Part shown: piece by piece, positions 19,160 to 57,560 of the stretch
Position numbering within the stretch: position 1 is the stretch's first letter
Layout: every line of letters begins with the position of its first letter
Origin: Minisyncoccota bacterium
GTDB lineage: Bacteria; Patescibacteriota; Minisyncoccia; JBAYJV01
Assembly (NCBI GenBank): GCA_041664925.1
Contig: JBAYJV010000001.1
Location: 125,845-189,844 of the forward strand
DNA: 64,000 nt
Direction: 5' to 3'
The notes under the pieces: model-generated
Told to the model about the DNA's origin: nothing
The model's database searches: none
The model's input: only the letters and a program-made list of their open reading frames with translations
Position numbers and translations under genes: made by a program

Positions 19160-19206
19160 TCGAGATTCTTCCCCTGTACCATACGGCACAGGATCAGAAT
19201 GACATG
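19160..19206 (-). other. conserved stem-loop element, copy Y (in the 3'UTR of hpf)
   Basis: The minus-strand reading is UGUCAUUCUGAUCCUGUGCC, loop GUAU, GGUACAGGGGAAGAAUCUCGAGG. Flanks are identical to element X at 57516..57560. The stem differs but pairing is preserved (8 bp with one G.U). Confidence 0.5.
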
Positions 19207-19265
19207 CTGCAGAGCCGAATAATCCTGCAACTTTTCACTTTAAACTTTAAATTTTTAATTTACTC

Positions 19266-19676
19266 TTACATCCCTTCTTCTCTGTCTCTTTTTCTTAAAT
19301 TTCTCATAAAAGATAAGGGCGAAAGATGGGTTAAGAGTTTCCATTTTCTCGCTTGTCTCAGTTCTTTCGAAGAAAACTTATCTTTATAATGTTTTAATTC
19401 TCTAGTAATTCTTGATTCCATTTTATCAATCGCTTCGTAGAGATTTTCCGCTCTTTCTTCTTCGTGAATTGTTCTGTTCTTAAGAACAATATCAATTTTT
19501 GATTCAAAATAGTTCCCCTTATTGTGGTGTTGGCTTGTTTTTTCAAGCTCAATCCAAACTTCCTGTTTTCCCGGAGCATAACTGACAAGTTTTTTTACAT
19601 TTTTAAGTCTCTTGTCTAGATAATTTTGGATAGCAGGAGTCATTTCAAAGCCAGTAGTGTTAACATGGATGTTCAT
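19266..19676 (-). CDS. hpf: ribosome hibernation-promoting factor (RaiA/HPF family)
   Basis: MNIHVNTTGFEMTPAIQNYLDKRLKNVKKL matches the HPF N-terminus (MNIxITGhnvEiTpAlrdYvekKl). The start was set at Met codon 8 of the listed ORF. Confidence 0.75.
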   Translation of the reverse strand: MNIHVNTTGFEMTPAIQNYLDKRLKNVKKLVSYAPGKQEVWIELEKTSQHHNKGNYFESKIDIVLKNRTIHEEERAENLYEAIDKMESRITRELKHYKDKFSSKELRQARKWKLLTHLSPLSFMRNLRKRDREEGM

Positions 19677-19841
19677 AAATTTAAAAACAAAATACAAATA
19701 CTTATTTTTAAATAAATTCGAAACACGAAACTCGAAATCCTAAACAATGCCTAAATTCAAACATTTTAAATTCAAAACGGTTTAATATTTTGGATTTAGA
19801 TATTTAAATTTGTTTCGAATTTCGAAATTCAATATTCGGAT

Positions 19842-21596
19842 TTACGACTTAATGTCAGTACTTATTTTATAAAAGTCTCTTTCCCGATTATTGATAACAT
19901 AGACGCTTTTCCAATCTCTTCCTGAAGAAACAAATTCTTCCCCGGTTATATTAAGCCAGTGTTTTTGTCCTGACCCATCAATTTCGTAAACTCTTTTATC
20001 TCCATCAGCTCTTACAAAATTACTTTCCTGATAGCGATTTAATTCTGACAAAGAAATTTCTTTAACTAAAGCCCAGTTTAAGTGTCCATAAAAACTAAAG
20101 ATTTTGTCAGATAAAATATGGCGCCTGTAATTACCATTAATTATATAAACTTTATAATCATCTTTTGCCCTGACAAGGTCACCATCTTGAATGAAAGATG
20201 ATTGAGCTTGGTTGGACGAATTAATAACAGATAGCGTTGAAGTTGGAACCGATTCTGTTTCCTGATTGCTCGTAACCGAAAGACTGAAATTATTATAATC
20301 TAAAGTTTCGTCTTGATAGTGACTATTATAAATTAAATAAGGCATGATAACAATTTTTTTAAGATCACCGCCTAGGCGATGCATTGTAATTTCTCCGGTT
20401 TTGCCGTCAGAAAAATTCCAATCGGATACGAAGTAATTTCCCGCCGAATCCATTTTTAAAATTTTCGCTCTGAACTCTCCTCTGGCAGCACTGCCATTAA
20501 AACTAATAACGACTTCGTTGTTGGTATCTTTTTTGGCAGCAATTTCATACCACAAAGGCATCCATTCTTTTATGAGACCAGATCTTAAAATAGCAAGACC
20601 AGGAAAAACTTCGTATTGTGCAGTTGGAGAAACATGGAGATTGCGAAGAAAATAATTTAGAAAACCATACTCAACCTCTTGGCGAGCATCGTTTAAATAA
20701 AGACTAATCATCCAATCGCCAAAGATTTTCGTGAAATCATTGCTTCCCCCAGCGGTACGGAGAGCATTGTTTATACTATCAATACCGACATCGCTATTTC
20801 TTGTCAATTGACTGAAAAAACCATTACCATAGTGATCCGCGAAATATTGTGCAAGCAGATTTATCGGAAGATAATCATAAAGTCTTCCACGCCATTCAGT
20901 TAATGGATCTGAGGGATATTGAAGAAACTTTTCAATCCTTGCTTTTAGATTTGAATTATTATAATCCTCAGTATCATATCCTAAAAATGTTGAAACATAT
21001 TCGCCCCTAAGTTCATTAAGCCAAATGTCTTCAGTTTTAGTTTGAATTCTTTCTTTTTGATTATAGGTAATTAAGTGTTGGAATTCGTGAGCAACATAAC
21101 TTTTGAGTTCCTGATCAAATAAAAAGTCAGCGCTTAAATATATCATTTCTCTTACATTTGAAGCGCTATTTTGCGAAAGAGTCATTTCGTCGGCAGCATT
21201 AAAATATCCTCCCACGCCATCAGTTAGCTTGGTAAAGAAAATGGTAATTCTAGGATCATTGTCAATTCCAGGGTTCCAAATATCCCCAAGAAGCTGTGTT
21301 AATTTTGGATAAATTTCTTGATCAAAGCTTTTTCCCAATTTTTTTATTATTTCTTTAAGTTGATTTTTTTGCTCGAGAGAAAGTGTGTCTAAATAATCAT
21401 CCTCTATGTAATAGTAAGCTCTGTCAGATTCATAATATGATTGCGCTGTTATTTCTTCGCGATTCGTAAAATCATAATAGCTATCAACAAAAAATTTAGT
21501 ACTAGCTGCGCTTACAGAAACTGGAAGAAAATTAAAAGCCAAGCCCAGAAAAAGGGCTATTAATAAAATCTTAAGTTTTGAAAATATTCTTTTCAT
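19842..21596 (-). CDS. secreted zinc metallopeptidase-like protein (HExxH, downstream E) with C-terminal surface-anchor-like module
   Basis: 584 aa with a signal peptide. AHEFQHL...E is a gluzincin-like motif. The C-terminal ~120 aa (DGDLVRAKDDYKVYIING...RADGDKRVYEID...KHWL) is shared with two other secreted proteins in the window. Confidence 0.5.
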   Translation of the reverse strand: MKRIFSKLKILLIALFLGLAFNFLPVSVSAASTKFFVDSYYDFTNREEITAQSYYESDRAYYYIEDDYLDTLSLEQKNQLKEIIKKLGKSFDQEIYPKLTQLLGDIWNPGIDNDPRITIFFTKLTDGVGGYFNAADEMTLSQNSASNVREMIYLSADFLFDQELKSYVAHEFQHLITYNQKERIQTKTEDIWLNELRGEYVSTFLGYDTEDYNNSNLKARIEKFLQYPSDPLTEWRGRLYDYLPINLLAQYFADHYGNGFFSQLTRNSDVGIDSINNALRTAGGSNDFTKIFGDWMISLYLNDARQEVEYGFLNYFLRNLHVSPTAQYEVFPGLAILRSGLIKEWMPLWYEIAAKKDTNNEVVISFNGSAARGEFRAKILKMDSAGNYFVSDWNFSDGKTGEITMHRLGGDLKKIVIMPYLIYNSHYQDETLDYNNFSLSVTSNQETESVPTSTLSVINSSNQAQSSFIQDGDLVRAKDDYKVYIINGNYRRHILSDKIFSFYGHLNWALVKEISLSELNRYQESNFVRADGDKRVYEIDGSGQKHWLNITGEEFVSSGRDWKSVYVINNRERDFYKISTDIKS

Positions 21597-56193: not shown

Positions 56194-56446
56194 GATTTTA
56201 TTTTTTGCTGCTGGTCTTGTTTTCTGTTATTTTTTTAGGTCGACCCCAAAACAATAAAACAAGACTTATCGCAGACTTAAAAAGGATATTAACGTTTAAA
56301 TTAAAGTTAAACAAACCAAATGGAAATAGATTTCCATCGGGGAAAGCAGAGTCTATAAGCGTTAGCGAATATCTCTTCTTTTACCTCCATTATACCACAA
56401 AAGAAAATAGAGGGTTGTGGATAACTTTAAACAAAAAATCCCGTCT

Positions 56447-56482
56447 TTTAGACGAGATTTCTTGTTCTGTTTATTTATTATT
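56447..56482 (-). terminator. intrinsic terminator downstream of 56483..57433
   Basis: On the minus strand, ATCTCGTCT, loop AAA, AGACGGGAT then TTTTTTGTTT. Confidence 0.55.
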
Positions 56483-57433
56483 TTAATTATCCATAAACCA
56501 TTTGACTGTCTTTCTTATACCTTTTTTTAAGTCATGCTCTGGCTTCCATCCCAAAAGCTTCCCAGCTTTGCTCGCATCAAGAGCGCTACGATTAATGTCA
56601 CCTTGCTTTTTGGGACCATAGATTACTTCTGTTTTTTTTCCGGTCACATTAAAAATCGTTTTGTAAAGATTGTTTATGTCTACCTCGCTGCCCGTACCAA
56701 TATTTATAAGTCTTTGGTCAAGTTTCCATGAAGAAGTATTGTTTTTTAATGCCAAAAGGTTCGCCCTAACAACATCTTCTACATATATATAGTCTCTGGT
56801 AATTTTTCCTGAACCATTAATTGTAATTGGCTTCCCTTTCAATAATTTATCTATAAAAATTGCAATTACACCAGCTTCACCAGAACTATTTTGTCTTGGA
56901 CCATAAACATTCGCATATCTTAAGGAAATAAAATCAAGGCCGAAAAGCCGATGATAAAGAGAAAAATATTCTTCAGTAGTCTTTTTTGTAAGACCATAAG
57001 CGCTTTCAGAAATAATCGGATGATTCTCTGGAGTAGGAATATTTTTAGTTTCTCCATATAAAGCTCCGCCAGTTGAAGAAAAAATAATCTTCGGCGACTT
57101 ACCCCAAACTTTTCCGAAATAAAGAGAGTTCTGTAAGACATTTAAAAATCCCAAAATATTTGTTTTAGCATCAAAAAACGGATTTTTTACTGATCCCCTA
57201 GCGTCGATTTGGGCAGCTAAGTGAAAAATCACTTCTGGTTTTTCTTTTATGAAAACTTTACTCAGCTTCTTATCTATAATATCCATTTTATAGAATTTCG
57301 CTTTGGGACTAAGGTTCTTTTTTGTGCCAGAAGATAGATTGTCTATCACAACAACCTTGTGGCCTTTTTTTATTAAATTGTCAACGATGTGGCTGCCAAT
57401 GAAGCCAGCTCCACCGGTAACAAGAATTTTCAT
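56483..57433 (-). CDS. NAD-dependent epimerase/dehydratase (UDP-glucose 4-epimerase-like)
   Basis: MKILVTGGAGFIGSHIV with YGLTK as YxxxK. Confidence 0.75.
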   Translation of the reverse strand: MKILVTGGAGFIGSHIVDNLIKKGHKVVVIDNLSSGTKKNLSPKAKFYKMDIIDKKLSKVFIKEKPEVIFHLAAQIDARGSVKNPFFDAKTNILGFLNVLQNSLYFGKVWGKSPKIIFSSTGGALYGETKNIPTPENHPIISESAYGLTKKTTEEYFSLYHRLFGLDFISLRYANVYGPRQNSSGEAGVIAIFIDKLLKGKPITINGSGKITRDYIYVEDVVRANLLALKNNTSSWKLDQRLINIGTGSEVDINNLYKTIFNVTGKKTEVIYGPKKQGDINRSALDASKAGKLLGWKPEHDLKKGIRKTVKWFMDN

Positions 57434-57515
57434 AGAAATTCAGTGAAAAATCACTAACCTTAACATCCTATCACAAATATTCAAATTGTCAAGCAAAAAT
57501 GGGTAATATGTGCTT

Positions 57516-57560
57516 CTGTCATTCTGACCCTGGCAAGCCGGGGGAAGAATCTCAGAGAAT
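57516..57560 (+). other. conserved stem-loop element, copy X
   Basis: UGUCAUUCUGACCCUGG, loop CAAG, CCGGGGGAAGAAUCUCAGAGAA. It has the same flanks as copy Y at 19160..19206. Stem sequence differs but pairing is preserved. Confidence 0.5.

Follow-up and report, generated by a model that had tools for sequence, protein, structure and literature searches.

Two look-alike hairpins in a Minisyncoccota contig are probably copies of a dispersed REP-like palindromic repeat related to the CGTC-tagged REPs

The 64,000-nucleotide stretch of Minisyncoccota bacterium contig JBAYJV010000001.1 analysed here (positions 125,845 to 189,844; hereafter ‘the window’) contains two hairpin-forming sequences, Y and X, in which identical arms enclose inner hairpins that differ in sequence and are base-paired in both copies. 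A first-pass annotation of the window took this combination as the covariation signature of a functional RNA structure, keeping in reserve a ‘small mobile REP-like element’ (repetitive extragenic palindromic). The question raised by the locus is therefore whether these hairpins are maintained as RNA or are copies of a repeat. Our analysis favours the second answer: X and Y are probably two of four copies in the window of a short (25–50 nt), dispersed, REP-like palindromic repeat, a variant related to the CGTC-tagged REPs.

Reading the window directly, we see both hairpins where they had been placed, Y on the minus strand (19206..19160, CATGTCATTCTGATCCTGTGCCGTATGGTACAGGGGAAGAATCTCGAGG) and X on the plus strand from position 57517 (TGTCATTCTGACCCTGGCAAGCCGGGGGAAGAATCTCAGAGAA). 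The pairing reported for both copies holds, as does the 6-bp inner stem of X; that of Y, however, is made of nine pairs (two of them G.U) rather than the eight described. The ‘flanks’ are indeed identical, but they also pair with one another (ATTCT/AGAAT, 5 bp) and are joined to the inner hairpin through a GA/GA loop, neither of which had been noticed. Folding gives –19.6 kcal/mol for Y as RNA (z –3.7) and –19.4 kcal/mol for X (z –4.1).

The number of copies also needs revision, from two to four: Y, X, and the previously missed Z and W (Table 1). Scanning the window gives five matches to the 10-nt core GTCATYCTGA (0.23 expected) and three to the two-arm pattern GTCATYCTGA-N4-34-GAAGRATC (0.00 expected); W was found by a relaxed two-arm search at 0+1 mismatches. 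A covariance model (R1), trained on 127 distinct units from other genomes and run on the window without filters, recovers Z, X, Y and W with no other credible match; the weak score of W reflects an apical insertion, its apex being 23 bases longer than that of Z and its final C changed to T. Z (GTCATCCTGAACGAAGTGAAGGATC) is on the strand opposite X, 17 nt further right, with the basal T-A pair replaced by C-G—i.e. compensated—and the two form the left (X) and right (Z) halves of a tags-outside (‘HH’) heterodimer. Three of the four elements have a G+C content of 48–59%, with W at 35% and the window as a whole at 36.5%. Beyond the arms, X and Y are unrelated in sequence and hence do not belong to a larger simple duplication, an origin that the first-pass annotation had itself raised.

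Several further candidates were rejected. The fifth core match (14914–14923) is coding (FRHSEW), lacks a 3′ arm and is kept as codons in a relative; a marginal model match at 46837 lies within a gene and looks like chance; and relaxed two-arm matches at 2+1 mismatches elsewhere in the window are no more frequent than in shuffled sequence. Nor do we read the X/Z dimer as one long REPIN-style hairpin, as folding predicts two separately folded units.

Taken 5′ to 3′ along the tagged strand, the unit opens with an unpaired tag, (T/C)GTC, and a basal stem of 5 bp (ATYCT paired with AGRAT), followed by a symmetric 2 × 2 GA/GA internal loop that connects the basal stem to the inner hairpin, a variable apex and a C(TC) tail; an architecture reproduced by predicted folds. 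The GA/GA loop would form tandem sheared G.A pairs. The commonest apex is a 7-nt mini-hairpin, GCGNAGC or ACGNAGT, giving a minimal unit with nine stem positions (two being G.A/A.G) and a 3-nt loop; where the apex is longer, it consists of a hairpin, of modules in tandem or of a nested copy of the element, taking in the window the form of a longer stem with a tetraloop (5 + 2 + 6–9 stem positions). GTC was fixed by the search pattern in all family-wide counts, whereas the base ahead of it was left free and is T in 73% and C in 16% of cases (TGTC in Y, X and W and CGTC in Z). The AT...AT stem ends, present in all copies, were likewise set by the pattern and so count as independent for the four window copies only. 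In the tail, C is followed by T (79%) and then by C (49%). The complement of the tagged strand would carry T.C/C.T in place of G.A/A.G, such that the non-canonical pairs can form on the tagged strand alone; from which it would follow that the structure matters in the single-stranded form of that strand.

Compensation is seen throughout the family. At the free Y/R position of the basal stem, 191 of 367 units have T-A, 161 have C-G and 15 are mismatched. The 127 distinct 25-nt units have 98.2% of their cells paired; shuffling lowers this to 92.4%, no shuffle out of 500 attains the real figure, and all slid pairing registers drop to 18–54%. Pair types in these units are UA (69) and CG (56) at the basal position, and GC (101) and AU (19) at the apex, where two pairs also covary. 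The same loci also hold units whose basal stem is compensated in other ways: CCC/GGG (15), TCC/GGA (13) and GCT/AGC (10). The hairpin described by the first-pass annotation is real, and its variable pairs covary strongly family-wide, but the reading of the difference between X and Y as the signature of a functional RNA is not supported, because the two are paralogous repeat copies with a freely varying apex and not orthologues under selection.

Searching more widely with the two-arm pattern, we find at least 120 stretches in IMG/VR viral contigs and at least 120 in species-representative bacterial genomes (one genome per species). Carriers among the matches listed include Chloroflexota, Acidobacteriota, Nitrospirota, Patescibacteria, Bacteroidota (amongst them isolates of Lacinutrix, Pedobacter, Flavobacterium and Gracilimonas), Ignavibacteria, Omnitrophota, Bdellovibrionota, Gemmatimonadota, alpha-, gamma- and delta-proteobacteria, Clostridia and others. 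The window is itself from a Candidatus Paceibacterota (CPR, candidate phyla radiation) genome, the name borne by a protein 100% identical to one encoded here. The 18 bases of the arms are identical from Paceibacteria to Acidobacteriota, Bacteroidota and phage contigs. The family is dispersed in the intergenic DNA of many phyla and in phage contigs, mostly as inverted tags-outside dimers: neighbouring units have their tags outside in 48 cases, inside in 11 and in tandem in 7. Single units show a weak orientation bias, being sense in 54 and antisense in 39 of the co-directional contexts (240 loci), and lie between convergent genes in 37 cases against 17 between divergent genes (crude gene calls). 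No target-site duplication of 2–6 nt was found above a permutation control at any offset, on which ground we rejected a MITE (miniature inverted-repeat transposable element); an intrinsic terminator was likewise rejected, as T is found downstream of the units at +1 only and the terminators called by the scanner lie nearby, not at the elements.

Copies are also found in frame within genes. One phage portal-like gene has a 62-residue in-frame insertion made of clustered elements, one nested within another, and a second has two insertions of 7–8 residues (DPSRRSG and PSLRSRTG), where three to four homologues have none; these insertions (L087, 7918–9504, minus strand; L119, 456–1904, plus strand) are reminiscent of the Rickettsia palindromic elements found within genes.

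Between close relatives, copies are gained and lost, with no target duplication. In L248, which is from the same relative population as sequences compared at the Y locus (below) and whose epimerase is 90% identical to that of the window, X, Z and W are absent together with the FG-GAP gene, and the 1083-amino acid (aa) gene is directly followed by the epimerase gene. The missing block comprises the promoter neighbouring W, the 407-aa FG-GAP gene (57747–58970), its terminator, the degenerate unit of Table 1, Z and X (window 57466–59030; L248 3700–4000). Both block junctions in the window carry a TTGACA(T/A) box, the –35 region thus appearing to have been duplicated by the insertion. We found no relatives of the FG-GAP protein in metagenomes; contigs encoding the identical protein are of the same strain and hence uninformative. 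At the other locus, L243 (76% protein identity) has a Y orthologue at the same place in the spacer between hpf and the inositol monophosphatase gene, its inner stem diverged, partly with compensation, and L246/L247 (77% identity) have no element at this site. The promoter beside Y is identical in all four sequences compared, within a spacer that has otherwise diverged. A look-up of hpf by exact sequence returned no record, probably owing to a differing start codon.

Y is the sole copy inside a predicted transcript; as had been proposed, it lies in the 3′ untranslated region (UTR) of hpf, about 60 nt past the stop codon and about 20 nt ahead of a terminator-like hairpin. The setting of X had been recognised in part, as an intergenic hub that also carries a terminator. 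X is antisense to both flanking genes and one half of a dimer with Z, which had not been recognised as the same element. Lying between a terminator (57726–57705) and a promoter, X and Z are largely outside predicted transcripts; W lies downstream of a terminator (59205–59178), flanked by the terminator of the 1083-aa gene on one side and the FG-GAP promoter region on the other.

Table 1. Positions and make-up of the repeat units and adjoining signals in the window
Feature	Position	Strand	Description	Model R1 score
Copy Y	19164..19204	–	TGTC tag, ATTCT/AGAAT basal stem, GA/GA, 9-pair inner stem, GUAU loop	17.1 bits
Copy X	57517..57553	+	TGTC tag, ATTCT/AGAAT basal stem, GA/GA, 6-pair inner stem, CAAG loop, TC tail	32.9 bits, E 2.8e-06
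Copy Z	57569..57594	–	CGTC tag, ATCCT/AGGAT basal stem, GA/GA, minimal apex ACGAAGT	44.2 bits, E 3.4e-09
Copy W	59046..59094	–	TGTC tag, Z-type arms GTCATCCTGAACGA...AGTGAAGGAT	11.2 bits, E 1
Possible degenerate tagless unit (low confidence)	57606..57629	–	TTATTCCTGCGAAAGCAAGAATCC; adjoins Z	not detected
Terminator-like hairpin	19114..19144	–	A/T-rich hairpin and T-run, 3′ of Y; fails the scanner’s G+C rule; conserved with changes in L243	
Promoter-like site	19105–19077	–	TTGACT-17-TAGGAT, for the inositol monophosphatase gene, beyond the Y terminator	
X/Z bracket	57465..57726	–	FG-GAP gene terminator 57726–57705; epimerase promoter-like site 57492–57465	

The closest described repeats that we can identify are those of the CGTC/TGTC-tagged REP superfamily, which includes dRS3 of Neisseria and RPE-6/RPE-4 of Rickettsia (Di Nocera, De Gregorio and Rocco 2013, BMC Genomics 14:522; PMC3733652). 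In that account, these have an unpaired CGTC tag (often TGTC or CCTC), complementary A and T at stem positions 1 and 2, a stem of 8–9 bp, a loop of 4–5 nt and a short unpaired 3′ tail (consensus CCA); HH dimers predominate, tags-inside (TT) dimers are rare and tandem (HT) ones negligible, with spacers of roughly 20–100 bp. The same account places them in five phyla, between co-directional or convergent open reading frames (ORFs) with some in-frame intragenic units, and describes no dedicated transposase gene flanked by the repeats. Set against this description, the present family shares the tag, the A-T start of the stem, occurrence in several phyla, the predominance of HH dimers (48/11/7), location, in-frame intragenic copies and the lack of an adjacent transposase. 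The likeness is partial for the stem, of about nine positions of which two are G.A/A.G in the minimal unit, and for the short tail that follows its ...ATC end. It differs in that the stem is broken by the GA/GA 2 × 2 loop; in an apex that varies freely and, in the minimal unit, has a GNA loop of 3 nt, where the described CGTC families have a fixed 4–5-nt loop; in its tail (C-T-C versus CCA); and in a distribution far wider than the five phyla given there, to which it adds CPR bacteria and phage contigs.

For a closer comparison, sequences of CGTC-1 to -4 were reconstructed by back-translating the REP-encoded peptides in the PMC3733652 supplement. This yields GTCATTCCCGCGAAAGCGGGAATC for CGTC-1 and CTTGA loops for CGTC-3 and CGTC-4; for CGTC-2 of Sulfurovum, the peptide RHSELVSGS gives roughly CGTCATTCTGAACTTGTTTCAGGATC, in which the 5′ arm is that of the present family and the 3′ arm is Watson–Crick. 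As far as they can be reconstructed, then, the present family would be a relative within the superfamily, nearest to CGTC-2, and none of the four families described, being set apart from them through back-translated peptides only. The possible degenerate unit next to Z reads as a hairpin (ATTCCTGC-GAAA-GCAAGAAT; 57606–57629, minus strand) resembling CGTC-1 (dRS3/RPE-6 type) without its tag, and may be a decayed unit of a sister family.

Two better-known types of system share part of this picture. Like the GTAG REPs of REPIN-RAYT systems, the present repeat is short and imperfectly palindromic, has a 5′ tag that is conserved and unpaired, and is intergenic, high-copy, arranged in inverted doublets and free of target-site duplication; GCGNAGC-type apices, too, are tabulated for enterobacterial GTAG REPs (PMC2817692). 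Unlike them, its tag is GTC and not GTAG, no RAYT lies beside any copy examined, and the family crosses phyla. With the subterminal hairpins of IS200/IS605 elements and their non-autonomous derivatives it has in common a strand-specific hairpin, an adjacent short guide/tag and the lack of target duplication, the difference being that here there are no left and right ends around a cargo and no linked TnpA or TnpB, just a single 25–50-nt hairpin. A RAYT/TIRYT profile had no match in the window, and in some 247 loci (about 1.7 Mb) its one match was an unlinked pseudogene. Likewise, clustering of neighbouring genes revealed no recurrent family other than related phage structural genes, and no recurrent recombinase. 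The single RAYT/TIRYT match, made up of ORFs in an Acidobacteriaceae contig (L183, 4512–4950, minus strand), is separated from an element dimer by about 750 bp that include another ORF; being frameshifted and not flanked by elements, it was rejected as a mobiliser. Literature searches by exact sequence and by the repeat-encoded peptides gave no match, and nothing useful came of a search by concept, covering REPs in CPR and other phyla.

By analogy with REP/RAYT systems and IS200/IS605 ends, a dispersed repeat of this kind would spread non-autonomously by way of a hairpin intermediate in single-stranded DNA; tag and basal stem would mark it for recognition, and the copying would fall to an enzyme acting in trans, none being encoded beside the copies. 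We infer a single-stranded DNA route because the G.A motif is confined to one strand, target-site duplications are absent and orientation with respect to transcription is weak. Copies landing in a transcript, such as Y in the 3′ UTR of hpf, would place a stable hairpin ahead of the terminator, which could incidentally protect the 3′ end of the mRNA and stabilise the message; as a by-product, that is, and not as the reason for the sequence.

Some of our observations sit less comfortably with a mobile repeat. No mobilising enzyme was found beside the copies examined and no transposition event has been directly seen, and the pattern of presence and absence could be due in part to deletion. The minimal unit is not unusually stable by nearest-neighbour energies (z about 0); the GA/GA loop was fixed by our search pattern, its invariance being thus not independently measured; and the orientation counts depend on crude gene calls, with 98 of 371 elements inside called ORFs, many of them probably spurious. 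At the Y site, 21 of 22 arm bases are unchanged in L243 while the upstream spacer has diverged, which hints at some constraint there.

It is from such conservation that the chief alternative draws: a cis-acting structured RNA, i.e. a 3′ UTR/intergenic element that stabilises mRNA or serves as a target for an RNase or RNA-binding protein, kept by selection on RNA structure. Y fits this description in being sense, in the hpf 3′ UTR, well folded as RNA and, in a relative with 76% protein identity, nearly unchanged in its arms. In RNA, tandem G.A pairs often serve for recognition by proteins; covariation is strong across the family, and sense placement slightly outnumbers antisense, as convergent does divergent. 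On the other side, X is antisense to both its neighbours, and X, Z and W all have a terminator on one side and a promoter on the other; units that pair up are mostly inverted dimers, in which one partner is always antisense, and the ratio of sense to antisense is only 54:39. Copies are missing in close relatives and present inside coding sequences, and the GCGNAGC apex is a classic DNA mini-hairpin rather than an RNA motif. Comparison with known RNA families was negative as well: Rfam 15 gave no gathering-level match in the window, with only chance-level matches around X and Y at E up to 10, and Hairpin-meta1, at 19.8 bits against a threshold of 40, was rejected. So too were a kink-turn (the GA/GA loop is symmetric, with Watson–Crick helices on both sides and no bulge) and hammerhead or SECIS-like readings of CUGA...GA (there is no CUGANGA...GAAA and no AUGA). 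Given the antisense/untranscribed copies, the inverted dimers and the presence/absence pattern, we consider a dedicated RNA element unlikely as a general explanation.

The conservation might instead reflect DNA, the elements being recognition or target sites for a host or mobile-element protein: an IS110-type or phage recombinase, or else a nucleoid/topology protein. There are precedents, in that REPs serve as targets of insertion sequences, Neisseria dRS3 is a phage integration site and E. coli REPs have been proposed as binding sites for nucleoid/topology proteins. The arms are extremely conserved across phyla, the elements cluster, one being nested inside another, and W and Z/X bracket the FG-GAP gene block missing in a close relative. 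The junctions of that block, though, fall in the duplicated TTGACA box and not in the elements, no recombinase gene recurs beside the copies, and a dimeric protein binding duplex DNA would have no need of the asymmetric GA/GA positions; we regard a role of this sort as quite improbable, more so than the RNA reading. As for chance similarity, or membership of a larger segmental duplication, its one point is the shortness of the shared arms, and it is left with next to no probability by three exact two-arm matches where 0.00 are expected, unrelated flanks and hundreds of copies elsewhere.

The dispersed REP-like repeat therefore remains our preferred account, and it bears on how this locus should be annotated. 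The hairpins are not regulatory RNAs specific to hpf or to the intergenic hub, which removes a false lead, and the elements should be masked as repeats when structured RNAs are sought; they probably give rise to spurious ORFs as well, such as that at 57499–57798. As a rule, REP-type repeats are specific to one lineage, as REPIN/RAYT systems are, whereas here one family extends from CPR to other phyla, an unusual breadth. To our knowledge, the CGTC-tagged REP class has no known mobilising enzyme; a widespread family in gene-poor genomes offers a practical handle on the mobiliser via gene co-occurrence. A bolder proposal, one that we hold as possible if doubtful, is that these repeats make up a fifth family of tagged REPs, pan-bacterial and hitherto undescribed, with arms near-identical in more than 15 phyla, phages and CPR. 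Near-identity over such a range would mean that one widely shared single-strand nucleic-acid enzyme or host factor reads the hairpin with its tag, 5-bp stem and tandem G.A, and the small gene repertoire of CPR bacteria could then pinpoint what mobilises the transposase-less CGTC-type REPs.

A few minor features of the surrounding sequence can be added. The promoter-like sites at 19077–19105 and 57465–57492, both on the minus strand, share the form TTGAC(T/A)-16/17-TG-TAGGAT. The window also holds a different, larger hairpin repeat, some 65 nt long (GCCATTCCGAAGC-CCTGCCTGACGGCAGGCAG-...AGCGAAGGAGGG), in a single copy (59100–59170, minus strand), where L248 has two in tandem (3794–3925); in outline it resembles the main family, with a GTCA/GCCA start and an ...GAGCGAAGG... 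end, and its core palindrome, CCTGCCTNNCGGNAGGCAGG, also makes a terminator-like hairpin at 23115–23134 of the window. Finally, a 99-aa ORF on the plus strand (57499–57798) starts just upstream of X, crosses the repeat hub and has no Pfam match; it is probably spurious, seeded by the repeats, and peptides like those of this ORF (VILSEAKNL and DPSLRS) are found at the ends of ORFs in other loci.

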